DNA of 64,000 nt from Escherichia coli (lineage in GTDB: Bacteria; Pseudomonadota; Gammaproteobacteria; Enterobacterales; Enterobacteriaceae), in the NCBI GenBank assembly GCA_902499925.1, contig GCA_902499925.1_4130.1. One strand, 5' to 3'. The notes below the pieces were generated by a model. That model saw only the letters and a list, made by a program, of their open reading frames with translations. It was not told the DNA's origin and made no database searches. Both the position numbers and the translations under genes were made by a program. Positions 36,400 through 50,560 of the stretch are shown piece after piece (positions within the stretch are counted from its first letter, which is position 1; each line of letters opens with the position of its first letter).

Positions 36400-36423
36400 T
36401 TTTATGTTTCCTTATCAGTGGTT

Positions 36424-36600: not shown

Positions 36601-36614
36601 GTACTAGCCACCAG

Positions 36615-36706
36615 CATATAATAGATACATTTATGCACCCTGTGGGCTGATTTGTTTCTATGCGTATATAATAGCAAAGGGACTGACCGGAGTCAATCCC
36701 TTTTTC
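36615..36706. repeat. Copy C of ~90-bp intergenic repeat
   Basis: TATAATAGATACATTTATGCACCCTGTGGGCT...AAAGGGACTGACCGGAGTCAATCCCTTTTT. Confidence 0.6.
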
Positions 36707-36714
36707 AATTATTT

Positions 36715-36864
36715 TTAAACTTCTTTCGGGTTGCGATAGGTGATAGCGTTCGGGTACATTTGTTTAATGTTATTCCATGCCTGGTTAACATTGTAACCAC
36801 TTGAGCGAATCAGTTGGTTACTACCGACACCTTGAAACACTACTTCGAATAAGAATTCTTTCAT
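36715..36864 (-). CDS. Small hypothetical protein (~49 aa), not in ORF track
   Basis: ATG overlaps stop of upstream gene (ATGA); translation MKEFLFEVVFQGVGSNQLIRSSGYNVNQAWNN... Confidence 0.45.
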   Translation of the reverse strand: MKEFLFEVVFQGVGSNQLIRSSGYNVNQAWNNIKQMYPNAITYRNPKEV

Positions 36865-37034
36865 GCTTTCACCTCGCGATCTGCTTTACCTTTACGCCAG
36901 GACATTACTAATTGTTCGCGTTGCCATAAGTCGAGTGATACAAAAAGTTTTGCGGTATCACTTTTAGGATACTCGCCATTAGTACCTAACCGATAAAACA
37001 GATCTTTCAGTACTGATAATTCTACTTGGATCAT
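36861..37034 (-). CDS. Hypothetical small protein
   Basis: Start at MIQVELSVLKD; track extension is the translated leader hairpin. Confidence 0.55.
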   Translation of the reverse strand: MIQVELSVLKDLFYRLGTNGEYPKSDTAKLFVSLDLWQREQLVMSWRKGKADREVKA

Positions 37035-37120
37035 TATACTTTCCTCTTTGTTGGGAGGGGAACTATTCCCCTCTCGATATAAAACATTATACACTTTATT
37101 CAGTACTGTGCAAGTACTTT

Positions 37121-37333
37121 TTAATCTTTCAGCCAATGATCCTGAATGAATTTTTCGCCGGAACCTTGCTGCATAGATTGTAACAGACGTTCACGATGAG
37201 CGGCGGCGAATTGCTCAGTACTATGCGTTACACCTGGTTGATATCTGGATTCACCATTGGGGGCGATGTATTGTACATCCCACGGTTTTTCGTTAGTATC
37301 AGACCATTTACGAACGATTAGTTGACCTTGCAT
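37121..37333 (-). CDS. Hypothetical protein
   Basis: 70-aa ORF with promoter and GGGGAGAATCATTTCTCCCC leader. Confidence 0.65.
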   Translation of the reverse strand: MQGQLIVRKWSDTNEKPWDVQYIAPNGESRYQPGVTHSTEQFAAAHRERLLQSMQQGSGEKFIQDHWLKD

Positions 37334-37416
37334 TTTTCTTTCCTCTTAGTGGGGAGAATCATTTCTCCCCTTCATGTAAACTATTATACAGTACTAGATT
37401 ATCTTGTCAATAGTTT

Positions 37417-37740
37417 TTATTCACCTTGTTTGAATTTAGTTTTCTCCATTGATTCCATGATTGCAACCAATACACCGTGGATCTCGCTTAACGCGGAATC
37501 ACTAAAAGCATTAATGAATAGTCGATCATTCTCGCGAATATTTTTAATGTACTTTTCAGCAGTAGTTGCGAATTCATTCAACGGTAGATCAAATGCTTTA
37601 TCCCATGATGGATGGCGTAATTGTAACAGTACTGGATTATCACGATCACCAGGGGAAAACGTACCAGTGATGAAACATACGCCCGGAATACTTTCGAACT
37701 GGCAACGGACTTCCTTTGTGATAGTAGTATGAATGTACAT
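37417..37740 (-). CDS. Hypothetical protein
   Basis: 107-aa ORF; GAGGA SD; likely co-transcribed with 37768..37956. Confidence 0.65.
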   Translation of the reverse strand: MYIHTTITKEVRCQFESIPGVCFITGTFSPGDRDNPVLLQLRHPSWDKAFDLPLNEFATTAEKYIKNIRENDRLFINAFSDSALSEIHGVLVAIMESMEKTKFKQGE

Positions 37741-37767
37741 TTATTGTTATCCTCTATTAAATTAATA

Positions 37768-37956
37768 TTACAGTTTATGAATCAATTCTTTATCTAAGCG
37801 ATAGCGTACATTATTAATGGTAACAGCATTATTTTTAATGCTACGCTGTACAGGTCCACCAGCAATAACAAATGTTGCTTTATTACCCCGAACAATGATA
37901 GCACTTCCAGGATTACCGAAATCATCTTGTACTAAAATACTTGATAAGTTTTCCAT
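37768..37956 (-). CDS. Hypothetical protein
   Basis: 62-aa ORF; promoter TTGCAT...TATAGT and leader hairpin upstream. Confidence 0.6.
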   Translation of the reverse strand: MENLSSILVQDDFGNPGSAIIVRGNKATFVIAGGPVQRSIKNNAVTINNVRYRLDKELIHKL

Positions 37957-38034
37957 TTTTATTTCCTCTTAGTAGGGGAAGATGTTTCCCCTTGATGTAA
38001 GTACTATAACAGTACTGAAAACTAAATGCAAGTA

Positions 38035-38391
38035 CTATGATAAAATCATGATAGGATATTCACTATCGATCAGTACCTCGAATCCGAAACCTTCGTACCA
38101 TTCTTTAAGATTAAAGGCGTTATCTTCTCCCGTATCGCATTCTAAGATGATACAATCTGAATCATCAGCGGCATCGATAAAGGCATTCATTAATTCGTTA
38201 CCTTCACCATTGCCCCGACTATCAGGATCAACATAAAGAGAATCAATAAACGCTACACGGTCATAATCAAGATCCGGTGCAATGATTCCACGTTTAACAA
38301 ACCAGTACTGCAATTGTGCTACTTTGCCCTGTACTTGATAGCCAGTGATCTCGCCATTGTCAGTAGTACGCGTGATATGTTGTATTCCCAT
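38035..38391 (-). CDS. Putative GNAT-family N-acetyltransferase-like protein
   Basis: 'IDSLYVDPDSRGNGEGNELMNAF' resembles acetyl-CoA-binding motif A; TTGACA-N16-TATAAT upstream. Confidence 0.55.
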   Translation of the reverse strand: MGIQHITRTTDNGEITGYQVQGKVAQLQYWFVKRGIIAPDLDYDRVAFIDSLYVDPDSRGNGEGNELMNAFIDAADDSDCIILECDTGEDNAFNLKEWYEGFGFEVLIDSEYPIMILS

Positions 38392-38455
38392 GATTACTAT
38401 CCTCAGTTAAGATATAAAACATTATACACTATCTTTCAGTACTGTCAATTACTTT

Positions 38456-38713
38456 TTATCTCATAGATCTATGCCAACAATTACGCGGGGGACGTTTAAA
38501 AGTACTATCATGATCCTCCTGGCAAGTAATGCAGTACATGCACCCTATAACGGCCTGGCGTCGATTCTCAGGGATTTTATCGCCGCAGTCGAGGCAATGT
38601 ACTAGTGATTCTCTTTGTGCGTTAATTTGCTTTCTAGCGTGGTTGACGGCGGCCTGAATCACTGCGTTGATCTCGTCTTGTTCGGCCCCGTCTTTCGCGT
38701 ATCCTACTGCCAT
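38456..38713 (-). CDS. Putative DksA/TraR-type C4 zinc-finger protein
   Basis: 'HCLDCGDKIPENRRQAVIGCMYCITCQ' gives CxxC-N17-CxxC spacing. Confidence 0.55.
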   Translation of the reverse strand: MAVGYAKDGAEQDEINAVIQAAVNHARKQINAQRESLVHCLDCGDKIPENRRQAVIGCMYCITCQEDHDSTFKRPPRNCWHRSMR

Positions 38714-39042
38714 TATTTTAACCTCATTATAAAAATACTATAGTACTGTAATGCTACAATAATACTACTAGTGTTTATCTTATTCAAACCATATGATACT
38801 ACATATCCATCAGCATTACCACGGATAGTAACGCCTTTGTACTGTCTATATAAATTCAACTGCGTATATTGCCTTTGATCAAGAATTGATCAGAATTATA
38901 CGCCTTATGCTAAATTAATCCAGTACTTTTTTGATCATTTATTGATCGATATTATATAGTTACATTTGTGCACCCTATGGGTTAGTGACGTTCTCGTCTT
39001 GATGTAAGTATTATGCCAGTACTGGAGGATATTGTCAATAGA

Positions 39043-39240
39043 TTATTTTAATTTTTTTCTGTCATTGATTAATGCTTTCAGTACTATACTAATAACTTGC
39101 AATGATTCATCAATGACAATGAAATTATTCTCTTTCATTAGATGATAGTTACCATTGATTGTATATTCTAACGAGTACTGTTTACGTTTAATTTTTGATA
39201 ATGTTTCTATTTGTTTTTGTACTGATTTCATGCTAATCAT
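39043..39240 (-). CDS. Hypothetical small protein
   Basis: ORF in AT-rich spacer; start taken at first ATG (track begins at TTG). Confidence 0.35.
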   Translation of the reverse strand: MISMKSVQKQIETLSKIKRKQYSLEYTINGNYHLMKENNFIVIDESLQVISIVLKALINDRKKLK

Positions 39241-39313
39241 TGTCAAACGTCCTGTAACGCATTCTAACGAGATAAACGGTTTAGTACTGGCATTGTATAG
39301 GGTAAATGATTAA

Positions 39314-39339
39314 AGCCCACCAGCGTTAACCAGTGGGCT
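39314..39339 (-). terminator. Rho-independent terminator
   Basis: AGCCCAC-N12-GTGGGCT hairpin followed by T-rich tract on minus strand. Confidence 0.55.
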
Positions 39340-39345
39340 ATAATC

Positions 39346-39489
39346 TTACATCTTGCGGATAATCTTAACAGTATCTTTCACCGATTTACCGTTTTGCTGA
39401 CATTGCTCGATCATCGCGTATTGTTCTGCGGTCAGATCCTCGCCAGTTTTTGCCAGTACTGCGTCGATGAATGAATCCAGTGCGATCAT
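39346..39489 (-). CDS. Small hypothetical protein (~47 aa), not in ORF track
   Basis: Own TTGACA-N16-TATAAT promoter; translation MIALDSFIDAVLAKTGEDLTAEQYAMIEQCQQNGK...; terminator downstream. Confidence 0.45.
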   Translation of the reverse strand: MIALDSFIDAVLAKTGEDLTAEQYAMIEQCQQNGKSVKDTVKIIRKM

Positions 39490-39588
39490 TTTGTTTCTCT
39501 CTTAGGTTAAGTTAACTACTGTTTATAAAACTTATTATACAGTACTATCAAACGTTGTCAATATCTTTAATAGTACTGGTAATATATT

Positions 39589-39768
39589 TTAGCGGTAATC
39601 GTCGTATGCTTTATTCACCTGGCGAATGTAACTTTCAAAGGCTTCGTCTACCGTTTCATACTCCCGAACATAATCACCATAGGAAACTACATACATACCT
39701 TTTTGATCTTCAAACGTCATGATGATAGAATCCAGGCCGATGATTTCAGTTTTTGCGATGATAGCCAT
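39589..39768 (-). CDS. Hypothetical small protein
   Basis: Start at MAIIAKTEII after AAGGA; upstream TTGACA-N17-CATAAT. Confidence 0.55.
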   Translation of the reverse strand: MAIIAKTEIIGLDSIIMTFEDQKGMYVVSYGDYVREYETVDEAFESYIRQVNKAYDDYR

Positions 39769-39850
39769 TTTTAATTCCTTAGTAGTGTAGTTGATAAAAG
39801 TTATTATGCCAGTACTATCAATCAGTGTCAATAGTACTGTGATAATATTT

Positions 39851-40063
39851 TTAGTTAATGATAGTCAGTGTAAAATTGTAATCCCCTGCCTGGTATAGTA
39901 CTTTGTCGCCGAACGTTCCAACACGTTTCATATTGCAATAGATACCCATAACACTTTTTACATCTTTGATATTCCGAACGCCAGTAATATCCTTGTTTAA
40001 ATGATCGTGATCAGAAAATAAAACTTGTTTTGCATTTTTCAGTACAGTGCAGATATTAGCCAT
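39851..40063 (-). CDS. Hypothetical protein
   Basis: 70-aa ORF; promoter and GGGGAGAATCATTTCTCCCC leader. Confidence 0.6.
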   Translation of the reverse strand: MANICTVLKNAKQVLFSDHDHLNKDITGVRNIKDVKSVMGIYCNMKRVGTFGDKVLYQAGDYNFTLTIIN

Positions 40064-40157
40064 TTTGTTTTCTCTCTGTTAGTGGGGAGAATCATTTCTC
40101 CCCTTGATGTAAACTATTATACAGTACTATAATCTATTGTCAAACTATTTTTTTATA

Positions 40158-40499
40158 TTATTCGAAATCTTCTGGACCGGACTGATAATCATCTTCACCG
40201 TATGCACTTTCTAACCGCTCACCAGTGTGATCATCAGTTAGTGAGTCATCCTCATAGTTCACGTCTACGCCAGTGATGTAAAACTGGCTATCGTCTGGAT
40301 CATTGAAATTAATTTTTTGGATGTTTACAATAACTGTATTGATACCCAGGACACCGCCATCAGCCGTTACAAAGTACTGATAGTTTTCGCAACCGCCTGA
40401 ATTGAAACCGTAATTAATTTCGGCCCGACCATCATTTAAACGCAGTGCCTGGGCGATGATTTCATTTTCAAAGTTAGATTGAGCAATTGAGATAGTCAT
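40158..40499 (-). CDS. Hypothetical acidic protein
   Basis: 113-aa ORF with promoter TTGCAA-N16-TATAAT and GGGGAAACGGTTTCCCC leader. Confidence 0.65.
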   Translation of the reverse strand: MTISIAQSNFENEIIAQALRLNDGRAEINYGFNSGGCENYQYFVTADGGVLGINTVIVNIQKINFNDPDDSQFYITGVDVNYEDDSLTDDHTGERLESAYGEDDYQSGPEDFE

Positions 40500-40623
40500 G
40501 ATTTGTTTCCTTATTACCAGGGGAAACCGTTTCCCCTTTCGATGTAAAACATTATACGCTTATTGAGATAGTTTGCAAGTACTTTCTACAAATACTTTTA
40601 AAATAGTTTTCAGTACTCAAACA

Positions 40624-40727
40624 TTATATAATAGATACACTTATGCACCCTGTGGGCTAGTGAGCTATCTCTCAATGAATATATAATAGCAAAATGGCTG
40701 ACCGGAGTCAACCACTTTTTTCATTTA
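40624..40727. repeat. Copy D of ~90-bp intergenic repeat
   Basis: TATAATAGATACACTTATGCACCCTGTGGGCTAGTGAGC...AAAATGGCTGACCGGAGTCAACCACTTTTTT. Confidence 0.6.
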
Positions 40728-40864
40728 TTTTTAGCTTTTAGAATCGCCGCCTTTCGCGTCATGCCTTGCTTGATGTATTCCTGTACTTTCGCTTTACGTG
40801 CATTCGCTTTATTTGCTTTCGTAAACGCCGAACAACTTTTATAATTTAAGCCTGTTGGATTCAT
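40721..40864 (-). CDS. Small basic hypothetical protein (~47 aa), not in ORF track
   Basis: Start directly after stop of upstream ORF (TAAATG); Lys-rich; followed by terminator hairpin. Confidence 0.4.
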   Translation of the reverse strand: MNPTGLNYKSCSAFTKANKANARKAKVQEYIKQGMTRKAAILKAKNK

Positions 40865-40954
40865 TTAAATCACCATAAAGAATAGATAGGTTACTAACAA
40901 TGCCGCGATCAATGCACCGACCAGGGCCGAACTATAGTAAGCTAATGATTTCAT
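40865..40954 (-). CDS. Small hydrophobic peptide (~29 aa), not in ORF track
   Basis: ATGA overlap with upstream gene; MKSLAYYSSALVGALIAALLVTYLFFMVI is a single predicted TM helix. Confidence 0.4.
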   Translation of the reverse strand: MKSLAYYSSALVGALIAALLVTYLFFMVI

Positions 40955-41103
40955 TTTTTAGCCTGAAAGTAATGTTTAATTTGAGCGGCGGTCAGTGCAC
41001 AATTACGCAGGAAGTTTTCTGTATAACTGCGGCGAGTACTGAAAGAGAATTGACCTTTGCCGTTACCGATAGTAACATCAAACCGAGCGTTGTATTGTTT
41101 CAT
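40951..41103 (-). CDS. Hypothetical small protein
   Basis: Start at MKQYNARF after GGAG; track extension is promoter/hairpin. Confidence 0.5.
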   Translation of the reverse strand: MKQYNARFDVTIGNGKGQFSFSTRRSYTENFLRNCALTAAQIKHYFQAKK

Positions 41104-41184
41104 TTTGTTTCTCCTGTTATTGGGGAGAATCATTTCTCCCCTTCATGTAAAACATTATACAGTACTAAAAACTAATTGCAAGTA

Positions 41185-41331
41185 CTATTTTTTAGATTTA
41201 CGCAAACTTTCTACCATCTCAGGAGTAAGGCCAGGCGGGTAGAAAACCACTTCATCAACGAAACGTAAAGGGAATACCCCATCTAAGGTTGAACGTGCTT
41301 TCTTGTTAGTACTCTTTTTTGATGCTTTCAT
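41185..41331 (-). CDS. Small basic hypothetical protein (~48 aa), not in ORF track
   Basis: Own promoter (TTGCAA-N16-TATAAT), GGGGAGAA leader and TAAGGAA SD; MKASKKSTNKKARSTLDGVFPLRF... Confidence 0.5.
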   Translation of the reverse strand: MKASKKSTNKKARSTLDGVFPLRFVDEVVFYPPGLTPEMVESLRKSKK

Positions 41332-41400
41332 TTCATATTCCTTAATTAGTGGGGAGAATCATTTCTCCCCTTCATGTAAAACATTATACGCGTTTAAAAA

Positions 41401-41610
41401 CTAATTGCAAGTACTATTTGAAAGTAAATGCTCATACGCTGCATTAACTACGTTTTCAATAACCGACTGTACAGAAAGATCCCCCACGGCCTGGCTATAG
41501 TAGAAATCGCTTACAGTGGTGTCATCGTATGCAAATACTTTACCAGGTACTGCATCAATCACATACATATTAACCTTTAAGATGTCGATCTTATCCTGTA
41601 CAGTAAGCAT
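41401..41610 (-). CDS. Hypothetical protein
   Basis: 69-aa ORF. Confidence 0.6.
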   Translation of the reverse strand: MLTVQDKIDILKVNMYVIDAVPGKVFAYDDTTVSDFYYSQAVGDLSVQSVIENVVNAAYEHLLSNSTCN

Positions 41611-41615
41611 ATTAA

Positions 41616-41888
41616 TTAACCTTTTAAGTACTGGCTTAAGTAGTCTTGTTGATCTTCGGTGATTGCAGCCATCTTCCCTAGTACTGGATTGATGATATAA
41701 TCCCCTGTAACGTCCTGTAACGCATTCTCAGGCGGTTTAACGGCTGGGGTAGCCATAGCCATTGCCTGGACTTGTTCGACGCTGTAACGCTCATAAAGGC
41801 GGCATTCTTCCGGTGTTAACATAGCATCAGTACGCTTCATCGGTTTAATGATGCTTTCGATCTCATTCAGTACTTGATTAACGTTCAT
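41616..41888 (-). CDS. Hypothetical protein
   Basis: 90-aa ORF. Confidence 0.65.
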   Translation of the reverse strand: MNVNQVLNEIESIIKPMKRTDAMLTPEECRLYERYSVEQVQAMAMATPAVKPPENALQDVTGDYIINPVLGKMAAITEDQQDYLSQYLKG

Positions 41889-41939
41889 GGTATAATCCCC
41901 AATATAAGCGGCCTGAATCGACCGCTAACGATGTTTTGA

Positions 41940-42209
41940 TTAATAGGTGTATGGTTGACGCTCAAACAATGATTGCACGTTGTACGCCCCGCTTATGGGC
42001 TTCGCTGGTAAATCAATTTTATATTGTTCACGCTTAAAGATAATAAAACGGCAATTGTTTTTAACATCAAAATTGATTGAACGTTCCAGGAGTTTTCCAT
42101 CGTGCACAAATACAAGATAACCGCTTGCTACTTGTTTTGTAGTACTGGTTGCAACCATAGACCGACGAACATGTGTACCTGCATCGATTAAAGTACTGAT
42201 ATTTTTCAT
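41940..42209 (-). CDS. Hypothetical protein
   Basis: 89-aa ORF. Confidence 0.65.
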   Translation of the reverse strand: MKNISTLIDAGTHVRRSMVATSTTKQVASGYLVFVHDGKLLERSINFDVKNNCRFIIFKREQYKIDLPAKPISGAYNVQSLFERQPYTY

Positions 42210-42289
42210 TATACGATCCTCTTAAGTTAATTTAATTTCTTTCCCCTATGCAGACACTATATCAAAGTATCTGCATAAAGTAAAGCTAA

Positions 42290-42613
42290 TTAAAGATCTT
42301 TTTTGCGTTTAACATTCTGTACAGTACAATGCAACGGGATATTAAGATCATTGCACAAACGAGTAAGGGAGGTTTCATCAGTATTAAGCCCGTCTACTGA
42401 TTCCTTTAAGAGAGATAACGCCGTTTGTTGATATGCATCTTCATAGCCATAAGTAAATGATTCAACCGCCAGATCATTCAAACCGTTATCCAGTTCAACG
42501 CTTACATGACAAGAATGATAAGTATTGCCATATGAATCAGTCCAACGTTTACCGTCAACATTGATTGCACGGATTGCAGCCAGGGAAACGGTGTTAATGA
42601 TAGTTTTAGCCAT
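42290..42613 (-). CDS. Hypothetical protein (paralog of 35442..35765)
   Basis: Shares 'RWTDSYGNTYHSCHVS' and 'FTYGYE'. Confidence 0.7.
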   Translation of the reverse strand: MAKTIINTVSLAAIRAINVDGKRWTDSYGNTYHSCHVSVELDNGLNDLAVESFTYGYEDAYQQTALSLLKESVDGLNTDETSLTRLCNDLNIPLHCTVQNVKRKKDL

Positions 42614-42702
42614 TTTTGTATTCCTTAAATTAATATGTTGTCTTGATAAAATCTATTATGCCAGTACTATCAAACTATGTCAATAGTACTGTGATAATAT
42701 TT

Positions 42703-42846
42703 TTACTTACTTTTTTCTTTCTTTATTACTTCCACCTGGTCGGCCCATTCTTTACCCCATACTTGTAAATTATAATGGTACTGGCAAAGAGCAACGCCCC
42801 GCTTTAAACCCGTAATAGATTTCTGACCACATTGACAAGTTTTCAT
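42703..42846 (-). CDS. Small Cys-containing hypothetical protein (~47 aa), not in ORF track
   Basis: Own promoter and GGGGAGAACCATTTCTCCCC leader; MKTCQCGQKSITGLKRGVALCQYHYNLQVW... Confidence 0.45.
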   Translation of the reverse strand: MKTCQCGQKSITGLKRGVALCQYHYNLQVWGKEWADQVEVIKKEKSK

Positions 42847-42932
42847 TTTAGTTTCCTTGTAGTGGGGAGAACCATTTCTCCCCTTGATGTAATGTATTAT
42901 ACTTTATTCGATTTACTTTGCAAGTACTTTTT

Positions 42933-43160
42933 TTAATTTAATTCATCAAGGCAAAGGATACGCTCAACGCCCAAATCAGTTAAACTAATCGACGGCACTT
43001 GATAGGTTTCAATGTATGCTACACTTGCCCACTGACCGAACTCATTAACGGCCCAGGTATTCATTGCATTTTGCAATTCCGCACCTTCCTTGTTGGTAAT
43101 GACTGCAACTACTTGTTCGTTGCCAGTAGTACCAGATACGCGAGTAATGATAATAGCCAT
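42933..43160 (-). CDS. Hypothetical protein
   Basis: Start at MAIIITRVSG; track extension is promoter/hairpin. Confidence 0.65.
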   Translation of the reverse strand: MAIIITRVSGTTGNEQVVAVITNKEGAELQNAMNTWAVNEFGQWASVAYIETYQVPSISLTDLGVERILCLDELN

Positions 43161-43397
43161 TGTTTTGATTCCTTTGATTTGGAAGGAGAACCGTTTCCCC
43201 CTCTCGATGTAAAACATTATACGCTAATCTCTTAATCGTGCAAGTACTTTTTATTACTTTTTGCAAAATACTTTAAACGCTCTCAATCGCATTACAACGA
43301 CCTTAACGCCACCAGCTAGGGCAATTGCATCAGATAATCAGTTTAATGCGTTAGAATCGTTTCTAGGCGGTGCTGGTGGCCTGGTAAACGATAAACA

Positions 43398-43425
43398 CAA
43401 AAAAGCCCACCATTTAAGGTGGGCT
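43398..43425 (-). terminator. Rho-independent terminator
   Basis: AGCCCACC-ttaaat-GGTGGGCT followed by TTTTTT on minus strand, just 3' of gene 43447..43929. Confidence 0.65.
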
Positions 43426-43446
43426 AGTGATTCAGTACTTTAATTG

Positions 43447-43929
43447 TTATGCTTCAACTTTGCGATGAGCTTCGATCCATTCCTCGCGAGTCATACCGCT
43501 GGAGTTAATCGCATCCAGTACTACAGCAATGCAGTTACCACGCACCGGAATCAGATATTCTTCCCCGTTGTCCAGTACTACCGCTACGCGTTCCTGAATC
43601 CATTTTTTTGCTTTTACTTCTGGCTTATCTTCCCCGTACTTAACCGCCAGGGCTTTTTGTGCCATCTCTGTAACTACTTCCAGATCCAGCCCAACTACTG
43701 CCGCCTGAATACTTTCAATTGTTGCTTGCAGTTCTGCTTCACGGGCCGCTTTCGCCGCTTCAATTTCTGCCGCTTTATTTGCTTGTAGTTCTTTCGCAGT
43801 ACTGTACGCGATGTTAAAATTATTGCGTACCGCTTTCATGGTATCGTTGTCCAGTTCAGCCAGGATCTCAGCCGCGACGTTAGTTTCATTTGCTACCAGT
43901 GCTTTGATGAATGATTTTACATTAGCCAT
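43447..43929 (-). CDS. Hypothetical protein with Ala/Glu-rich predicted coiled-coil region
   Basis: Start at MANVKSFIK; central 'AKELQANKAAEIEAAKAAREAELQATIESIQAA'. Confidence 0.7.
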   Translation of the reverse strand: MANVKSFIKALVANETNVAAEILAELDNDTMKAVRNNFNIAYSTAKELQANKAAEIEAAKAAREAELQATIESIQAAVVGLDLEVVTEMAQKALAVKYGEDKPEVKAKKWIQERVAVVLDNGEEYLIPVRGNCIAVVLDAINSSGMTREEWIEAHRKVEA

Positions 43930-44134
43930 TTTATAAATCCTCAATTAAAGTTTAGTTTACGTTTATTAGTGTATCAAAGTTTTCTCGACGTGTCCAGTTT
44001 TTCGTTCGACTTACTGGCGGTCTACTTAGTGCTCCCCGTCTTGATGTAATACATTCTACGCCTTTTTGCGGTAATGTCAACTACTTTTTTTAAAACTATT
44101 TTCAAAGTATCTCAGTACTACGATACTATAAAAA

Positions 44135-44161
44135 CAAAAAAGCCCACTGTATAAGTGGGCT
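44135..44161 (-). terminator. Rho-independent terminator
   Basis: AGCCCAC-ttataca-GTGGGCT followed by T-run on minus strand, 3' of gene 44179..44478. Confidence 0.6.
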
Positions 44162-44178
44162 AGTGATTCAGTACTAGA

Positions 44179-44478
44179 TTATAAACAGTTAATTACTCCG
44201 GTGTGCGTTACTTTCTCAGTATCCATTACAGTGACCGAACCGCGTTTAGTACTTGCATCGTAATAAATTGTCGTGCTACCTTTTTCGTCTTCTTCATGGA
44301 ACGGGCCGCTTTTAAATGCTTCTGGCTGGATCTCTAAATCCTTTAAAACAATCTCGCCAGTACTTTCATTGGTCATCGCTACAGTGCACTGAATGAATTT
44401 TTCATTACTTACATCTAACGACGCATTAACAGCGAAAGAGGAAACAGATAAAGCCAGGGCGATGATTGCAATTTTCAT
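44179..44478 (-). CDS. Putative secreted/periplasmic protein
   Basis: N-terminus MKIAIIALALSVSSFAVNA-SLDV looks like a signal peptide. Confidence 0.7.
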   Translation of the reverse strand: MKIAIIALALSVSSFAVNASLDVSNEKFIQCTVAMTNESTGEIVLKDLEIQPEAFKSGPFHEEDEKGSTTIYYDASTKRGSVTVMDTEKVTHTGVINCL

Positions 44479-44562
44479 TTGATTATCCTTAGTTACCAGG
44501 GGGAACCGCTCCCCCTTGCGATGTAAAATATTATACAGTTCTAAAAACTATTATCAAGTACT

Positions 44563-44799
44563 TTATGATTTTTTATAAAACATTTCAGCAGTGATATTTT
44601 TACCCGTTGGCTGTACTTTATCCAGGATTTTTTGATGTCCAGGCCGACCAAATGAATATGATCCGTAAACCGTAAACCAGTAGTTACCCTCAGTGTTTAC
44701 ATGTACAGCACAATAAGGAACACCACGCGATTCATCACTAGTAAAGTGTGATACCGTTCCCGTTACATTCGCAGACGTTGATTTGATTTGTTCGAGCAT
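44563..44799 (-). CDS. Hypothetical protein
   Basis: 78-aa ORF with leader hairpin GGGGAACCACTCCCC. Confidence 0.6.
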   Translation of the reverse strand: MLEQIKSTSANVTGTVSHFTSDESRGVPYCAVHVNTEGNYWFTVYGSYSFGRPGHQKILDKVQPTGKNITAEMFYKKS

Positions 44800-44906
44800 T
44801 TTCTTATTCCTTAGTTACCAGGGGAACCACTCCCCTATGCAAAACATTATACGCGTTTAAAAACTAATTGCAAGTATTTTAATAAAAAGTATTTGAAAAA
44901 TAGTTG

Positions 44907-44935
44907 TTGACAAGTGCATCCAGTACTGGCATAAT
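44907..44935 (+). promoter_or_regulatory. Plus-strand sigma70-like promoter (TTGACA-N17-CATAAT) with no downstream ORF
   Basis: Hexamers read on plus strand; followed by CCCACCGGGTGC motif and a hairpin. Confidence 0.5.
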
Positions 44936-44941
44936 TACTAC

Positions 44942-45045
44942 ATAAAGACAAAACAGTCTCTAACCCACCGGGTGCCGAGATCCGTCTATTAAATGATTCA
45001 GTACTGAAAAAGTAACGGGGAGTTATTATCTCCCCGCGTTGTTAT
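44942..45045 (+). ncRNA. Candidate small RNA (promoter-to-terminator unit ~100 nt)
   Basis: Begins after promoter at 44907-44935; contains CCCACCGGGTGC; ends at CGGGGAG-ttattat-CTCCCCG hairpin followed by T-rich tract. Confidence 0.35.
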
Positions 45046-45263
45046 TTGGTAAGGTATAAACAGAAGTCACCTTTATTTGCTACGCCGCCAGTGTAACGCG
45101 ATGAATAGTTAGAAACGTCCTGGACTTCTGCTATTACCAGTGTATCATCATTCATTTCGTCGCAGAAGCAAACGGCTGGATCTTGTACGCCGATTTTGTC
45201 GGCATGTTCCCGCATAGATTTAACCAGTGCTTCCAGTTGGGAAAGAGTAGTGATATTAGCCAT
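45042..45263 (-). CDS. Hypothetical protein
   Basis: Start at MANITTLSQ; track extension is leader. Confidence 0.65.
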   Translation of the reverse strand: MANITTLSQLEALVKSMREHADKIGVQDPAVCFCDEMNDDTLVIAEVQDVSNYSSRYTGGVANKGDFCLYLTK

Positions 45264-45349
45264 TTTATTTTCCTCATTACCAGGGAGAACCATTTCTCCC
45301 TTTGATGTAAACCATTATACAGTACTGAAAACTAATTGCAAGTACTTTT

Positions 45350-45553
45350 TTAATTTAATTGCTTTAAAACATACTCAAAGACACCACGCACATCATTGAT
45401 CATCGCCTGGCGGTTAGCAGGTAACGCATCAGGATCGCCACTATCCCAGGCATTGATAAAACTCCCCAAATCATGATAGATTTTATTCTGTAAGCCGATT
45501 AACTGCAATTCTTTTTCTTCAAGCTCTTTGATACGTTCAATTAAATCACTCAT
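45350..45553 (-). CDS. Hypothetical protein
   Basis: Start at MSDLIERIKE after GAGGA. Confidence 0.6.
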   Translation of the reverse strand: MSDLIERIKELEEKELQLIGLQNKIYHDLGSFINAWDSGDPDALPANRQAMINDVRGVFEYVLKQLN

Positions 45554-45570
45554 TAGATAATCCTCAGTAC

Positions 45571-45855
45571 TTAACTGTAAGATCCGCAACGGTCGCAGTA
45601 GTGCCCGTCCTCGTCATCGTCAACGAATTGACCGACGAAATGATCTACTTTCGCTTTCAGGTTATTATAATCGTTTTCTACTTCCGTTAAACGCTTCTGG
45701 TAGTATTCCAGTGCTTTAAGATATGCCGCATCAGCAGTTTTCTCCTGCATAGCTAAATTCATGCCACGCGTTTCATCGTACAGCCAAAAACCATCGGTGC
45801 ACTCACTGATTGACAATGATTTACTTAACACATTGTACTTTATTACTTTACTCAT
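45571..45855 (-). CDS. Hypothetical protein with C-terminal CxxC
   Basis: Start at MSKVIKYNVL after GAGGA; C-terminal 'HYCDRCGSYS'. Confidence 0.65.
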   Translation of the reverse strand: MSKVIKYNVLSKSLSISECTDGFWLYDETRGMNLAMQEKTADAAYLKALEYYQKRLTEVENDYNNLKAKVDHFVGQFVDDDEDGHYCDRCGSYS

Positions 45856-45911
45856 TAGATAATCCTCAGTAAAGGCGGGAACCATTCCCGCCATTGATTC
45901 AGTACTGAATG

Positions 45912-46151
45912 TTACATTCCAACCATTGCGGCACGGATCGCAGTAGTGCTATACTTGAATCCGTCCGGCGTTGTAGTAGTACCGTTGGCTTTTAATCTGC
46001 GGTACATACATTGGGCCGCAATATCTTTAGTTTTACATTGTGCGATGCAACTTTGAGCAAGCCGATATAATGACTCACCGTTATTAATCCACAATGAAAC
46101 ATTCCAATGAGTTTTGTTTTTGTGCCCGTTGTAAGTTTTAGTACTAGCCAT
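45912..46151 (-). CDS. Hypothetical protein (paralog of 47951..48190)
   Basis: Shares 'GHKNKTHWNVSLWINN' and identical C-terminus 'TPDGFKYSTTAIRAAMVGM'. Confidence 0.7.
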   Translation of the reverse strand: MASTKTYNGHKNKTHWNVSLWINNGESLYRLAQSCIAQCKTKDIAAQCMYRRLKANGTTTTPDGFKYSTTAIRAAMVGM

Positions 46152-46241
46152 TTTTAAATCCTCGTTTGAGCGGGGAACCATTCCCCGCCTCGATATAAAG
46201 TATTATACGCTTTTAAACTTAGTTTGCAAGTACTTTTTGAA

Positions 46242-46853
46242 TTAATATTCGATTGATTCTACTACGCCATCAATAACATTGAATTGATATTCGTTACCCT
46301 CAATCAGTGCCGTAATGTTTTCAGTACTGAATTGATCCTCATATGCATTCTCTAAATCACGGTACAACTTGCGGGATAATTCACGAATAGTTTCAGTGAG
46401 TAGTTCCTCAAGCTCATTAACTAACGTTTCTTGTTTTGCGGTTAAATCAGTGTAAGCCGATTCAATGTACCCGCTTACAGTGTTTTCGTGTGAGTAGCGA
46501 GATTGAGAACGCTTTACACTCATCGCCAAATCATCTTCATTCAGCAGGTGACGGATTGAGCGATACTTAGTTAATGCTCTTACCTTGCGTAAAAACTTCA
46601 CTGCGTCAACGTGGTCAGTACTGATTGATGCACCGTCACCCTGGGACCAAAAACCACTGAATTGTATTTCAGCGTCATTAATGCCATATTCCGGTAATAC
46701 TGTTTCTTTATAGTATTCGATCACTGACTCAGAAAAGAAATCATCCCCGCTTGAACGTTCACGTTCCCGAACCAGTTCGATAGCTGACGTTTTTTGTTCT
46801 GCGTTCAATTCAGAAAAATCCATAACATAAGTAGTAGTAGTGATAGTTTTCAT
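46242..46853 (-). CDS. Hypothetical acidic protein
   Basis: 203-aa ORF; tandem promoters plus structured leader upstream. Confidence 0.7.
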   Translation of the reverse strand: MKTITTTTYVMDFSELNAEQKTSAIELVRERERSSGDDFFSESVIEYYKETVLPEYGINDAEIQFSGFWSQGDGASISTDHVDAVKFLRKVRALTKYRSIRHLLNEDDLAMSVKRSQSRYSHENTVSGYIESAYTDLTAKQETLVNELEELLTETIRELSRKLYRDLENAYEDQFSTENITALIEGNEYQFNVIDGVVESIEY

Positions 46854-46879
46854 TTTGTAACCCTCATTCAGTAGTTGAT

Positions 46880-47035
46880 GTAAGTATTATACGCTTTTAA
46901 AAACATTTGTCAAACTATTTTATCAGGGGAGTTTTTCGTGTGCCTTACTCCTGGGCTACTTAACGGGGAGTTACTTATTTCGTTCCCCGTCCTGATGTAA
47001 AACATTATACGCCTTTAAACATAGTTTGCAAGTAC
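46880..47035 (-). promoter_or_regulatory. Tandem promoters flanking second copy of ~70-nt structured leader
   Basis: Same arrangement and near-identical element as 36424-36600. Confidence 0.5.
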
Positions 47036-47078
47036 TTTTTAAAAATAGTTTTCAGTACTGAATATTAAAAAAAAAGTA

Positions 47079-47107
47079 TTGACAGCATTATCAAGTACTG
47101 GTATAAT
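47079..47107 (+). promoter_or_regulatory. Plus-strand consensus promoter (TTGACA-N17-TATAAT)
   Basis: Followed at ~20 nt by CCCACCGGGTGC; no plus ORF downstream. Confidence 0.5.
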
Positions 47108-47281
47108 ATATCCCATGACAACAGCTAACCCACCGGGTGCACAATTGTAACTATACTAAACTAATTTTTCTATAGATACACTCCCGCACCCTATGGGCTA
47201 CGGCTTATCTGCCAATGAATACATTATGCCAGTACTGACAAAATAAGTCAATACCGGCAATTGTAAAGATTTGTAAACTGC

Positions 47282-47512
47282 TTATACTGCAATCGCGTCC
47301 AGGCTATAATAATAATAAGTGCCGTATTGGTGTACTTTATTACCTTTTATTTCAGTACTGAATGAATCCGAACGATTGGCATATGATGTTAATTTAAAGT
47401 ACTTTGATTTGCTGATACGTTGCCATACACCGCAGATCCGCTGTAAGTAAGTAGTTTTATTAGTGGTAGTATCTTTTACGGTTTTAACTTCAGTCATATA
47501 CATATTGGTCAT
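47282..47512 (-). CDS. Hypothetical protein
   Basis: 76-aa ORF; AAGGAG upstream. Confidence 0.55.
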   Translation of the reverse strand: MTNMYMTEVKTVKDTTTNKTTYLQRICGVWQRISKSKYFKLTSYANRSDSFSTEIKGNKVHQYGTYYYYSLDAIAV

Positions 47513-47601
47513 TTTTTTTTACTCCTTGCTTTAGTGGGGAACTATTCCCCACCTGATATAAAGTATTATACGCTTTTAAACTTAGTTTGCAAGTACTTTT
47601 T

Positions 47602-47865
47602 TTATAGTACTGCTATCTTTTTAGTACGGTACACGGTAACACGATTCCCCTTACGGTCGAGCTTTATTTCTACCACTCGACGCGATACACTAGCAGGACT
47701 TTTCAACGCCGCTAACCAGTACTGTAATGATCTGGCGGTACTACGCTTTACAATGGCCCAACGTTTACCACTTTCCGATTGTACGCCCATATCTTTAAAC
47801 GTTGCCCCGTCCTGGCGTGCGGCGATCCGAGCTTGTTCACGCGTCGCAAAATACTTAATATTCAT
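47602..47865 (-). CDS. Hypothetical protein (paralog of 34951..35346)
   Basis: Start at MNIKYFATREQARIAAR. Confidence 0.65.
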   Translation of the reverse strand: MNIKYFATREQARIAARQDGATFKDMGVQSESGKRWAIVKRSTARSLQYWLAALKSPASVSRRVVEIKLDRKGNRVTVYRTKKIAVL

Positions 47866-47950
47866 GCTGTTGCCCTTATCGTTGGTGTATGAATAAAACA
47901 CTATTATAAAGTACTATCGCAAAAAATGATAGTACTTTAAATAAATTCTA

Positions 47951-48190
47951 TTACATTCCAACCATCGCCGCACGGATCGCAGTAGTGCTATATTTGAATC
48001 CGTCCGGTGTTTTATCTTGTCCAGTCTGTTCTAAAAATAACATCATATGACGGGCCGCATCATTGCGATTAGTGCTATCGTTAATAAAGTCCTGGGCCAA
48101 CCGGTATAATGATTCATCGTTATTAATCCAAAGGCTTACATTCCAATGAGTTTTGTTTTTGTGACCTAAGAACATTTTTGATTTAGCCAT
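47951..48190 (-). CDS. Hypothetical protein (paralog of 45912..46151)
   Basis: 79-aa ORF sharing N- and C-terminal blocks with 45912..46151. Confidence 0.7.
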   Translation of the reverse strand: MAKSKMFLGHKNKTHWNVSLWINNDESLYRLAQDFINDSTNRNDAARHMMLFLEQTGQDKTPDGFKYSTTAIRAAMVGM

Positions 48191-48282
48191 TTTTTAATCC
48201 TCTTATATAGTGGGGAACTATTCCCCACCTGATGTAAAACATTATACGCTTTTAAACTTAGTTTGCAAGTACTTTATTAAAC

Positions 48283-48645
48283 TTATTTGTAAATTTTGCC
48301 ACTGTCAGCCCATACCAGGAAACGATGCATATTATCCCATGCATCTTGTTTTAAATTTAAACCGTGCAATTCCTCAGTAGTTGCCATCCCTGGTACTGGC
48401 TTACTACACACCGCGAAATTTTCTCCCATGTACTGATAAACCATCGTTAAATCATTTGAGATCATTACATGGATCATTGAATCAAGCATCAAAGTAGCGG
48501 CGTATTGTTCACGCTTAAGCGGCAACATTGCAATAAGTTCCCGATAAGCTGCAATGTGAATTTTTACAGTTTCAGCCGGAAGACCTTTCATCTCTTCACG
48601 GAAGTTAACCAGGTTAAGCATGATTTTATTGATTTGAGTCGCCAT
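48283..48645 (-). CDS. Hypothetical protein
   Basis: Start at MATQINKIML; leader palindrome GCGGGAA-gtg-TTCCCGC. Confidence 0.7.
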   Translation of the reverse strand: MATQINKIMLNLVNFREEMKGLPAETVKIHIAAYRELIAMLPLKREQYAATLMLDSMIHVMISNDLTMVYQYMGENFAVCSKPVPGMATTEELHGLNLKQDAWDNMHRFLVWADSGKIYK

Positions 48646-49008
48646 CGTTTTAATCTCTCTTAATGTGTAGCGGGAAGTGTTCCCGCTCTCGATGTAAAAC
48701 ATTATACGCTTTTATCAGTACGGTGCAAGTACTTTCTACAAATACTTTTAAAATAGTTTTCTTTCTATATAGGGGAACTATTATTCAGTACTGCAACCAT
48801 CCAGGGGAACTATCTTTCTATATAGTAGTACTATCATTCAGTACTGAATCAATCCACCAAATCATCCCGATACCCCGTAAAACGGCCTCAGACGCATTCT
48901 AACGCATTAATACACCTAAGCTATACATTTGCACCATTCCAATCATTCCAGGGCTTTACTGGCCGTTTAAACGCGTTAAATTATTTTCAATTATTTTGTT
49001 TTTAGCTA

Positions 49009-49036
49009 TTGACTCAGTACTAAAAAAGCGTATAAT
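49009..49036 (+). promoter_or_regulatory. Plus-strand promoter (TTGACT-N17-TATAAT) in noncoding region
   Basis: Followed by TACTACATAGA...GAGAAAG...GATCCGTCC leader resembling the unit at 44936. Confidence 0.45.
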
Positions 49037-49474
49037 TACTACATAGACGCGAGAAAGCGGATACCCCAGGGGGTGGGAAGATCCGTCCAAAATTCATAAA
49101 ATTTAAAAAGGATACACTCCCGCACCCTAGCAGGTCAAAGCACTTTCTCAGTACTGAAATATAGTACCATAGTCCGGCCCAGGATAGCAAGCAAATTAAT
49201 TAAAACTTTTTGCTTCCAGGGTATTGCTTTATTTTTCCAGTACTGTATAATAGTTCCATCAAGTCGAGAAAGACTCAAGCCCACCGGGTGCATAGTTACG
49301 CCCAAAATTCAGTACTGAAAAAATTTTTAAAAATATCCGTCCAGGCCGTTGACATTGCCCCCAGTTTATAAGATAATGATTCCAGATTCAGAAAAATCTA
49401 ACTCCAGATACTGCGGGGAAACTATCCCCACGCGGTAGGGGAACTATTGGAAAAAACAAAATAAAATTTTGATT

Positions 49475-49620
49475 TAGCCGTCTATACTTCCAGACGTGTA
49501 ACCATCTAGCCGTTTAGCCGTCCAAACGTCTAGCCATCCAGCCATCCAGAAATCTAGCCGTTTAGCCGTCTAGATGGATAGCCATCTTTACTTCCAGACT
49601 TCTGGAGGGCTAGACATATC
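49475..49620. repeat. Cluster of short direct repeats (TAGCCGT / CCATCCAG / TCTAGCC), iteron-like
   Basis: About ten TAGCC(G/A)T-type units within ~150 bp in ORF-free region. Confidence 0.6.
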
Positions 49621-50289
49621 TACGTCCAAAATCCATCCAGGGTAACTACGCCCAAAATCCGTCAGTACTATACCATAGATCTATCTTTTGAAAGGGAGTA
49701 TTCAGTACTGCCATCATAGCCCTCACTATGTTACCCTAGGAGGATGAAGACTATCATGTAGTACTGAATACTGTTAGAGGGAATCCACCAGCTTGTGCTG
49801 GTGGCATAATGCTTTAGATTAAAATCAGTACTGATACCATTCTGTTAATACCAGTACTGTTATTACGATTTTCATATGAGGTTCAAAAAGATGTACCACC
49901 ACAGGAGGAACTATCTTTTCTGTACTGTCTCACGACAGGAGGTAGAGTAAATGAATTGTTCGCAGCAACTCATCTCTCTATGTAGAACATTATACAGTAC
50001 TGAATCATAATGTCAATAACTTTCTTTCACCATTCAGTACTGATATTCTTGAGAACTACCCGACTACAAACATCATTATATCCCACAAATCATAAACGTC
50101 CCAACGTAAATTTCAACTTTCGAAGATCCAACTTTTATTTCATAGGTACTCCAAAATTTTTAGGATCGAGATTTAGGATGGAGTACTAACCAACTTTTTG
50201 CTGGAGCCTCAAGGGGTAATGGAATTTTACCCCGAAGGGTAAAGGGGTAATTGAAATTAAGGTGAAAGTAATAATTCAGTACTAATCAT

Positions 50290-50560
50290 TGCGTGATTAC
50301 TTTTGATTACATTTGATGTAATTTGCAAAATGGAAAAGGAGCTTGGAAACTACAAAGTACGGCAGACTTCCTCTGCCTACTTAGTGGCATATCGACACCT
50401 TCAGTACTGAATACTTTTGGGGCAGTACTGAATCCTTCCCTAGCATTCTTGAGTAATCTTGTCTATAATAATCAGTACTGAATCATATATAATCATTCTG
50501 TGATTCTACGGTGCTCATATAAATGTTTATATATGATTACTTATGACTACATATGATTAC
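50290..50560. repeat. Repeated TGATTAC-type heptamers
   Basis: GTGATTAC...TGATTAC...TGATGTAAT and ATGATTAC...TGACTAC...ATGATTAC read directly. Confidence 0.45.

Follow-up and report, generated by a model that had tools for sequence, protein, structure and literature searches.

The locus studied here poses a simple question: what does a near-consensus sigma70 promoter produce when it reads into DNA that holds no open reading frame, against the direction of its neighbouring genes? The unit occupies positions 44907–45047 of a 64,000-nucleotide stretch of DNA, the whole of which is referred to below as the window, and an earlier, sequence-only reading had proposed that it encodes a small RNA antisense to the gene flow. 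Following the unit through its copies and relatives, we find that it belongs to a structured RNA module that is multi-copy and clade-wide and is not previously described in Rfam or the searchable literature.

The unit lies in the terminal repeat of a jumbo coliphage

When a 1 kb query around the unit was compared with phage records, 39 were matched, the best of them Asteriusvirus jumbo coliphages at 93–97% identity (ECO103 4-12-1, A4, G17 and PBECO4). Judged by this nucleotide comparison, the source of the window is an Asteriusvirus jumbo coliphage of the PBECO4/121Q/G17-like kind. In the annotation of phage vB_Ec-M-J the corresponding stretch falls inside a 21.5 kb direct terminal repeat; terminal repeats of ~20–21 kb have been confirmed experimentally in fEgEco12 (PMC13070987), and PhageTerm predicts one of ~20–21 kb in Klebsiella phage Muenster. 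Coordinate transfer places the direct terminal repeat (~21 kb) at about 29,000–50,500 of the window, with the physical left end of the genome near position 50,500.

This repeat is a series of small early genes on the minus strand, most of which are preceded by one cassette (repeat families D1–D9) with a regular order: an AGTACT motif with A/T-rich UP-like DNA, the promoter TTGCAA-N16-TATAAT, a 5'UTR hairpin (GGGGAnnnnTCCCC), a ribosome site and ATG. The window holds no tRNA or tmRNA genes, and Rfam 15 gave no match at the gathering score anywhere in it; at E values up to 10, a search of 44800–49500 returned three chance-level matches, none of them on any unit. The proteins encoded beside the unit matched only families of unknown function in Pfam and PHROGs and yielded no candidate for a partner. 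More than 80% of the genes of RaK2-like giant phages, which are in development for therapy, are of unknown function, and we know of no study of their early programme.

Anatomy of the unit

The unit promoter (44907–44935, plus strand) reads TTGACA, 17 nt, CATAAT, just as the sequence-only reading had it; TG stands before the −10 hexamer, and 11 of 12 positions agree with the consensus. It stands back-to-back, 33 bp apart, with a canonical minus-strand promoter (44873–44846), which belongs to the regular early cassette of the next gene (44821–44873, minus strand; TTGCAA-N16-TATAAT, then the 5'UTR hairpin GGGGAgtggtTCCCC at 44835–44821) and is context rather than part of the unit. The A/T-rich spacer between them (44874–44906) is common to both promoters and occupies the UP-element position for each, with −35 hexamers at 44907 on the plus strand and at 44873 on the minus strand.

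Beyond the −10 hexamer comes a conserved CAT (44941–44943) in nearly invariant alignment columns, the A of which, at 44942 and 7 nt past the −10, is the predicted start site. It is followed by a hairpin, P1 (44946–44959; AGAC-AAAACA-GTCT), with an A-rich loop, and by a 12-mer, Box 1 (44964–44975), that reads CCCACCGGGTGC here and CCCAYNGGGTGC in the family consensus. Overlapping Box 1 is a second hairpin, P3 (44970–44987), in which GGGUG (44970–44974) pairs with CGUCU (44983–44987); it is mutually exclusive with a small alternative hairpin, P2 (ACCC-ACC-GGGU, 44963–44973). The 3' strand of P3 falls in Box 2 (44981–44989; TCCGTCTAT here, TGTATCTAT in the commonest family form), which keeps a fixed distance from Box 1. 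The two motifs singled out earlier, Box 1 itself and GATCCGTC at 44979–44986, are both in place. Further on lie a palindrome, CAGTACTG, with an A run after it (44999–45006), found at the same place in sense and antisense copies, and a bidirectional intrinsic terminator (45016–45047; stem 45016–45036) with a terminator-like score on both strands.

The primary role of the hairpin at 45016–45036 is to terminate the minus-strand gene upstream (45042–45293), and it is annotated as a terminator in G17 and Muenster. It had been described from the letters as CGGGGAG-ttattat-CTCCCCG with a T-rich tract closing the plus-strand unit; the hairpin is there, but in the plus direction its 7-bp GC stem is followed by an interrupted tail, CGUUGUUAUUU, which makes for a moderate terminator only, and one that may be leaky. 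Clean U tracts are present in the orthologues from Muenster, RaK2 and the metagenomic loci L014 and L015, and between orthologues the stem covaries through compensated changes. Termination in the plus direction at 45016–45047 would give a unit RNA of ~105 nt (44942 to ~45047). For the 44942 copy, the predicted 106-nt RNA has a folding energy of −27.9 kcal/mol, lower than that of shuffles (z = −3.1). On the plus strand there is no open reading frame of 30 amino acids or more between 44392 and 45183, and the genes on either side (44563–44799 and 45042–45293) are on the minus strand, both in agreement with the sequence-only reading; a short structured RNA would be a reasonable product of the unit.

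A family of copies on both strands

Three similar units had been pointed out further along the window. Exact motif copies are indeed present at 47079–47140 and 49245–49295, and the third, at 49009–49090, carries a degenerate version of Box 1, CCCAGGGGGTGG. With one mismatch allowed, the Box 1 12-mer occurs six times in the window against 0.00 expected by chance, and CCCNNNGGGTGC occurs 12 times against 1.66. Alignment joins the units into one family of 10–11 window copies on both strands, seven of them in sense orientation, and the covariance model places all ten of its window matches with E ≤ 8e-4 between 31,086 and 49,309. On the minus strand, copies lie at 31115, 33372, 36646, 38981, 40656 and 47197, with a degenerate one at 49131. 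These six or seven minus-strand copies had escaped the sequence-only reading, as had the back-to-back promoter, the main role of the hairpin as terminator of the upstream gene, and the convergent pairs.

Sense copies on the minus strand span 31086–31182, 33343–33440, 36617–36712, 38952–39045 (a seed sequence of the model), 40627–40722 and 47168–47251. At 31115, 33372, 36646 and 40656 the −35 hexamer lies within the terminator hairpin GGGATTGACtccgGTCAGTCCC; at 40627–40722 this hexamer is TTGACT and the hairpin is that of the upstream gene. The copies at 31086–31182 and 36617–36712 have short leaders and are each accompanied by a Chi site, which follows the copy in the former and Box 2 in the latter. 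The copy at 47168–47251 (TTGACT-N17-CATAAT; P1 of the form TGGC-AGATAA-GCCG; CCCATAGGGTGC) converges with an antisense plus-strand copy with a short leader at 47079–47158 (30 bits, E 2e-6), the two forming the pair 47129(+)/47197(−). In a second convergent pair, 49065(+)/49131(−), a plus-strand copy at 49009–49094, in which the G at position 12 of the degenerate Box 1 is compensated in P3, faces the degenerate minus-strand copy at ~49109–49131. One more plus-strand copy (49224–49309) points toward the physical left genome end, with a weak −35 (TTGCTT), TATAAT and a P1 of AGTC-GAGAAA-GACT. The copies at 49009–49094 and 49224–49309 score 67.5 and 67.7 bits, both being model seeds and hence matches by construction.

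Across at least eight phages or contigs there are 66 distinct copies, 48 of which, drawn from the window and its relatives, make up the alignment. The order of elements is fixed: −35 (TTGACA or TTGACT); −10; 5 nt; the nearly invariant CAT; a leader of 13–23 nt; CTAR; Box 1 (CCC-A-Y-N-GGGTG-C); five mostly purine bases; and Box 2 (T-[G/C/A]-Y-R-T-C-Y-A-T). The −10 hexamer keeps its position in 48 of 48 aligned copies, with three of its six positions invariant, and a −10-like hexamer with CAT stands upstream in every listed copy. Ten of the 12 positions of Box 1 are identical in at least 65 of the 66 copies, GGGTG being invariant, and in Box 2 position +19 is Y and position +20 is R in 100% of copies. 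Not one indel occurs between Box 1 and +28 in the 66 copies, a stretch that ends in a weak −10-like hexamer, [T/C]A[T/A][A/T]N[T], at +23 to +28 from Box 1. The spacing of −10, CAT, Box 1 and Box 2 is fixed, whereas the P1 stems and the 5-nt spacer vary freely.

Covariation supports two leader hairpins

P1 is formed in 28 of the 42 distinct leaders (about two thirds) by 18 different stems, among them AGAC/GTCT, AGTC/GACT, TGAG/CTCA, TGGC/GCCG, CGC/GCG, ACCG/CGGT and AGCA/TGCT, and its loops are A/G-rich and 6–7 nt long (AGAUAA, AGAACAA, GAGAAA, AAAACA). The core stem has 3–4 bp only, and about 14 of the 42 leaders are short ones (e.g. AUAGAAACAAACUAG) that keep the A-rich stretch and a 3-bp UAG/CUA stem, without a stable fold. 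In a permutation test that was position-constrained and counted Watson-Crick pairs only, the 5' strand of P1 paired with its own 3' strand at 3.46 of 4 positions and with those of other copies at 2.42 of 4 (p < 1/5000). Using a covariance model built on nine copies of the same geometry, 78 matches were realigned; in this model-fitted alignment P1 shows 84 double-change cells against 35 ± 5 in shuffles (0 of 500), and its three inner pairs alternate between GC, CG and AU, hardly any cell being unpaired. Since the 78-match alignment was fitted to the model, the permutation test, which does not depend on it, serves as the independent check on P1.

P3, in which GGGUGC pairs with the Box 2 bases GYRUCY, is paired in 92.7% of cells, against 29–67% when the partner is slid by one to three columns. 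Its 3' strand varies by transitions only, keeping G-U/G-C or U-A/U-G pairs, and where the last base of Box 1 changes from C to G (C11G), the partner changes from G to C (G18C) in three of four copies. P2 (RCCC-AYN-GGGU), the sole call of RNAalifold on the plain alignment, is possible; it is untestable by covariation because its sequence is invariant. P1 and P3 are supported, as predicted helices, by the patterns described above. Since the stems covary, since the strand opposite the invariant G/U strand varies by transitions only, and since the distance from the start site is fixed, selection appears to act on the transcript.

Other structural ideas were discarded. A helix P0 that would close the structure by pairing the linker with the 5-nt spacer was not convincing (own −6.2 against permuted −5.9 kcal/mol, p ~0.05), a pseudoknot between the P1 loop AGAUA and the Box 2 bases UAUCU showed no covariation by eye, and a mini-ORF in Box 2 (NUG-UAU-CUA-stop) lacks its start codon in about one third of copies. 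A likeness of Box 2 (GTCTAT) to what we take to be the nick site of the R388 relaxase was likewise dropped.

The module is conserved across genera and occurs in both orientations

By blastn, the 156-nt unit is found at 72–73% identity in intergenic DNA of the Klebsiella phages RaK2, K64-1 and Muenster (genus Alcyoneusvirus). An exact-pattern scan of IMG/VR gave 12 loci, attributed to RaK2, 121Q, GAP32 (358,663 bp), CBB (378,379 bp), putatively Yersinia phage fHe-Yen9-04 (354,378 bp) and a number of jumbo contigs from metagenomes. Phages of Escherichia, Klebsiella, Cronobacter, Yersinia and Pectobacterium/Erwinia all carry an identical Box 1, whereas their genomes are otherwise only ~30% alignable (PMC13070987). 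In the closest relative, complete at 351,992 bp, a regular-expression census and the covariance model put all copies within 302,363–321,167, which is the terminal-repeat region, and none in the other 330 kb. A BLAST search of the unit against E. coli genomes and plasmids, a search insensitive for short seeds, gave no match. Literature searches on the motif strings, on Asteriusvirus, on the promoters of RaK2, GAP32 and CBB, and on promoter-early stem-loop (PeSL) cassettes returned no description of the element; the CBB paper reports promoters of three kinds only, RpoD-like, TGAAACG-type and ATAAATA.

In the window, in Muenster and in the metagenomic loci L005 and L015, the unit fills the gap between the terminator of one gene and the regular promoter of the next, in either orientation. 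Sense copies usually have their −35 inside the terminator hairpin (GGGATTGACtccgGTCAGTCCC) and run through the AGTACTG motif into the next promoter; one of them, L015:12617, leads straight into a ribosome site and ATG and is the direct leader of a gene. Antisense intergenic copies stand back-to-back with the next promoter and pass through AGTACTG into a bidirectional terminator ~45 nt after Box 1, and about half of the terminators that close them have clean U tracts in the direction of the unit. The antisense members of convergent pairs and the end-facing copy 49280(+) are without a terminator hairpin ~45 nt after Box 1. The terminators closing antisense copies look like containment, not read-through. 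The layout of promoter, leader, AGTACTG and terminator is shared by Muenster, RaK2, L005, L014 and L015, and two convergent pairs near the left end are kept between genera.

The genes on either side of the Muenster orthologue bear no relation to their counterparts in the window, yet unit and terminator align over their full length, with compensated terminator stems; it is therefore the unit itself that is conserved. As a function common to both orientations, regulation of the downstream gene in cis is excluded because it fails for antisense copies, and antisense control of the upstream gene because it fails for sense copies and because the overlap is terminator only. What stands of the antisense small RNA proposed at the outset is an ORF-less promoter-to-terminator unit that runs against the gene flow, is conserved in other genera and has a covarying leader hairpin. 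The antisense role is not supported: the RNA would reach only into the terminator hairpin common to both transcripts and the last ~6 nt of the upstream gene, with no coding body, and the module occurs in sense orientation as well. Nor did complementarity disclose a phage target, the complement of Box 1 being found nowhere else in the related 352 kb genome; a target of the c4/OOP type was rejected on the same ground.

An RNA as the proposed functional product

Taking these observations together, we favour the reading that the unit represents a noncoding RNA module, immediate-early and present in many copies, that is found in the terminal repeat of RaK2-like jumbo phages only, and that the RNA is its functional product; we put the probability of this at roughly 0.45. 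Host sigma70 RNA polymerase would start at the A of the conserved CAT, and the transcript would fold into a 5' P1 hairpin with an A-rich loop, a single-stranded CUAR-CCCAYN stretch and P3 (GGGUG/YRYCY) before running through an AU-rich stretch and the AGUACUG motif. Antisense copies, such as the one from 44942 to ~45047, would end at the bidirectional terminator of the upstream gene and release an RNA of ~105 nt, and in sense copies the module would form the 5' part of a longer transcript. With about ten strong sigma70 promoters per repeat and two repeats per genome, the RNA could reach large amounts within the first minutes of infection, and it may bind a conserved protein, as a platform or as a decoy; this protein would be a host factor or an early protein of the phage.

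The RNA itself is taken to be functional because the module would work in either orientation, is confined by terminators when it runs against genes, and carries the same invariant box in five host genera. Because Box 1 is identical across at least five enterobacterial genera, the partner would itself be a conserved one, whether a component of the host or an early protein of the phage. We also count in favour of an RNA product the ~92% of cells that are compatible with P3, together with its one compensated pair. Against it, sense copies are without a terminator of their own, so that a discrete small RNA would need processing or a roadblock, and the invariance of Box 1 puts its pairing or single-strandedness beyond covariation, which means that recognition as DNA has to be reckoned with. 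Complementarity or identity to E. coli 16S, 23S and 5S rRNA and the rrnB leader extends to 7–8 nt at most, which is chance level, and a bipartite match to the 16S 790 loop was rejected, since it is lost in variant copies.

In a bolder form of this reading, which we hold to be speculative and somewhat unlikely, RaK2-like jumbo phages would flood the cell within the first minutes with ~20 gene copies' worth of short structured RNA, whose invariant CCCAYNGGGUGC platform would seize some conserved machine of the host or turn it to other use. Candidates for this machine include RNA polymerase, an RNA chaperone, an RNase and a sensor of the defence systems, and a put-like polymerase-modifying RNA would be one version of the idea. 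If true, the module would be an RNA-based device for host takeover or anti-defence, and binding to a host factor would bring a mechanism based on RNA into a field in which protein effectors prevail. The module is among the most conserved non-coding sequences found here and lies in the first DNA expected to enter the cell. It merits an Rfam covariance model, annotation pipelines leave these gaps blank, and, being short, promoter-defined and multi-copy, it is easy to test.

Alternative explanations

The alternative that survives best, which we nevertheless consider unlikely, is a cis-acting antitermination leader resembling HK022 put or lambda nut, in which the nascent two-hairpin RNA, with or without a phage protein, would stay on the polymerase and allow it to read through early terminators. 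In its favour, the element begins within a few nt of the point where transcription from a strong early sigma70 promoter would start, it contains two hairpins, terminators abound in the region, the L015:12617 copy serves a gene directly as leader, and the hexamer after P3 that weakly resembles a −10 has a parallel in the −10-like element of putL (PMC9378689). However, nearly every early gene has its own promoter, which leaves no obvious need for read-through, and the antisense copies aim at a terminator and then at a gene in antisense; about half of these terminators have good U tracts in the direction of the unit, which looks like selection to stop. There is also no match to boxA and none in Rfam, and at least ten copies in both orientations make a layout unlike that of put or nut. 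Were the leader to alter the behaviour of polymerase, it would represent a new class of processivity signal.

It is less probable again that the module acts at the level of DNA, with Box 1 as a site for a protein or sigma factor (for instance CCCAYN as −35 to a TAtaaT-like −10 for the phage-encoded sigma factor, a MotA-box-like middle promoter, or a Q-type loading site) or with the unit as a transcription-primed R-loop origin. T4 oriF and oriG combine a promoter with an unwinding element, and the G-cluster followed by AT-rich DNA in the unit resembles their layout. An invariant, non-covarying 12-mer is typical of protein recognition, CCCAYN and the −10-like hexamer stand exactly 17 bp apart, without an indel in any of 66 copies, and sigma-like proteins are encoded by these phages, namely CBB_513 (PMC5259590) and the early-region Muenster gp004, with HHpred matches to sigma factors. 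Yet the absence of Box 1 from the 330 kb outside the terminal repeat would be odd for a promoter class, and the sixth position of the supposed −10 is T in 61% of copies only, less well conserved than the supposed spacer TGTATC. The transitions in Box 2 keep the pairing with GGGUG, one pair being compensated, which points to an RNA or a single-strand structure; the covariation of P1 just upstream is without a DNA-duplex explanation; and convergent pairs would be senseless for origins.

Very little weight, in our view, can be given to a classical cis-antisense regulator of the lambda OOP kind, whose RNA would pair with the 3' end of the upstream mRNA and bring about its cleavage, or whose head-on transcription would reinforce termination and insulate early genes. 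The unit is convergent with gene 45042–45293 and has its terminator in common with it, and intergenic antisense copies always lie between a terminator and the next promoter, but the overlap amounts to the terminator hairpin and ~6 nt of coding sequence and takes in none of the conserved parts (P1, Box 1, Box 2), the upstream gene differs in Muenster, and to the seven window copies in sense orientation the mechanism is inapplicable. Equally improbable is a purely PeSL-like terminator/promoter cassette, kept because it drives the recombinational shuffling of early genes, and with a leader that has no function of its own: the whole repeat is built of terminator-plus-sigma70-promoter cassettes flanking small variable ORFs, as in T4-like phages (PMC2839356, PMC4122927), and flanking genes differ between genera, but gene conversion would homogenise cassettes, whereas here the two boxes stay fixed from genus to genus and the stems and loops of P1 and the spacers differ from copy to copy in one genome, and the covarying stems indicate selection on the transcript.

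Comparison with known systems

Noncoding RNAs are found in the terminal repeat of the Pseudomonas jumbo phage PA5oct, where ncRNA001 and ncRNA002 are abundant and verified by RNA-seq (PMC7318152). PA5oct is a distant relative and has a long direct terminal repeat full of early genes; its ncRNAs, however, are 236 and 451 nt long, and the covariance model finds no copy of the module in its 39 kb terminal repeat, which leaves the likeness as an analogy only.

Lambda OOP and PR'-6S are short non-coding transcripts that run from a constitutive sigma70 promoter to an intrinsic terminator, OOP against its neighbouring gene, and OOP acts through ~50 nt of complementarity to the 3' end of cII. The unit resembles both in its short promoter-to-terminator transcript, and OOP also in running against a neighbour gene, but the conserved part of the unit is outside any overlap, and its RNA would have no extended complementarity to the opposite mRNA. 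Neither a Q-like factor nor a binding element was identified for the unit.

With HK022 putL and putR and lambda nut, the module shares promoter-proximal hairpin RNAs, strong early sigma70 promoters and a terminator-rich early region. The put RNAs, like P1 and P3 at about +5 to +46, consist of two stem-loops directly after an early sigma70 promoter. They differ from the unit in length (~70 nt against ~47 nt) and in setting, the unit being present in at least ten copies per repeat, in both orientations, with its intergenic antisense copies closed by terminators. When compared with lambda nutR, every aligned copy is without a boxA (CGCUCUUA-like) next to a boxB hairpin, and, set beside lambda boxB, the P1 loop is purine-rich and 6–7 nt long.

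PeSL cassettes are known from T4-like phages (Arbiol 2010, Comeau 2014; PMC2839356, PMC4122927). As in these cassettes, a terminator stem-loop and a near-consensus sigma70 early promoter are repeated between small variable early ORFs, with flanking genes that differ. PeSLs are without a conserved transcribed leader, whereas the unit has a structured one of ~50 nt with an invariant 12-mer, and its copies lie in both orientations and in the terminal repeat only. In their sequence architecture, the terminator-plus-promoter repeats are the jumbo-phage counterpart of PeSL cassettes; these surroundings are of a known, PeSL-like type, and the new part is the conserved structured leader.

Chi sites and AGTACT palindromes in the terminal repeat

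The E. coli Chi sequence GCTGGTGG is strongly over-represented in the window as a whole, with 12 sites observed versus 0.58 expected, and 11 of these lie inside the terminal repeat, in a Chi-rich span extending from 31050 to 49804. Nine of the 11 are carried by the minus strand, the sense strand of the small early genes, in the orientation read by RecBCD coming in from the right genome end. An inverted Chi pair, CCACCAGCttgtGCTGGTGG, occupies 49785-49804, with the presumed left end about 700 bp away. In the closest relative, the 19 kb repeat holds 11 of the 28 Chi sites in the complete genome. The concentration of Chi within the repeat suggests a role in DNA-end protection or in the promotion of recombination.

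The 64 kb window has 284 copies of the palindrome AGTACT and 65 of CAGTACTG; AGTACT is absent from the stretches 14715-22478 and 24520-29820. In the complete genome of the relative there are 919 copies, at a density 3-4 times higher in the repeat. This abundance is roughly 10-15 times that expected by chance, a rough estimate that takes a uniform hexamer frequency, rather than a shuffled sequence, as its expectation. AGTACT overlaps the -35 or extended -10 element of many early promoters and is present after every unit of promoter and structured leader. It looks like a binding or modification site for some factor.

Regions flanking the presumed left end

In the ~1.1 kb adjoining the presumed left genome end (49400-50500) we found no convincing ORF, and this ORF-poor stretch grows to ~1.7 kb when it is counted from the first gene, at 48702. 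The left-end region contains 8-bp tandem repeats CGTCTAGC/CATCCAGC (49479-49630), many CAGTACTG sites and long inverted repeats based on AGTACT (49826-49859), together with an outward-facing promoter, TTGACA-N17-GATAAT (49349-49377). Just outside the terminal repeat, seven plus-strand ORFs, each of 358-440 aa, follow one another (55391-63870) and run opposite to the small early genes. They are alike in size, five of them being 374-393 aa, which suggests a candidate paralogous array.

Regulatory-like motifs around the units

A direct repeat, TTTACAA-ATC-TTTACAA, directly precedes the -35 element of some units, on the minus strand of the window (47256-47275) and in several units of Muenster. It is placed as an activator or UP site would be. 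Between the members of convergent unit pairs, Muenster (L003, ~21620-21650) and two metagenomic relatives (L015, ~6095-6115; L005, ~1290) carry an AT-rich palindrome, present in the window's convergent pairs in a degenerate version only. It resembles the Fur box (AATGATAATCATT / GAGAATCATTATCATTCTC).

An SOS-box-like sequence, TACTGT-N8-ACAG, was looked for in the window and none was found. In terminated units it lies downstream of Box 2 and ahead of the terminator, in CBB (L007:5384-5403), the fHe-Yen9-04-sized contig (L006:6369-6386), L008 (747-764), and the metagenomic relatives L014 (726-743, 2656-2673) and L015 (857-874, 3144-3161, 9968-9985). Two such sequences also occur in L005. The sites match the LexA consensus at up to 17 of 20 positions, a likeness that may be no more than a by-product of two overlapping ACAGTACTGT motifs.
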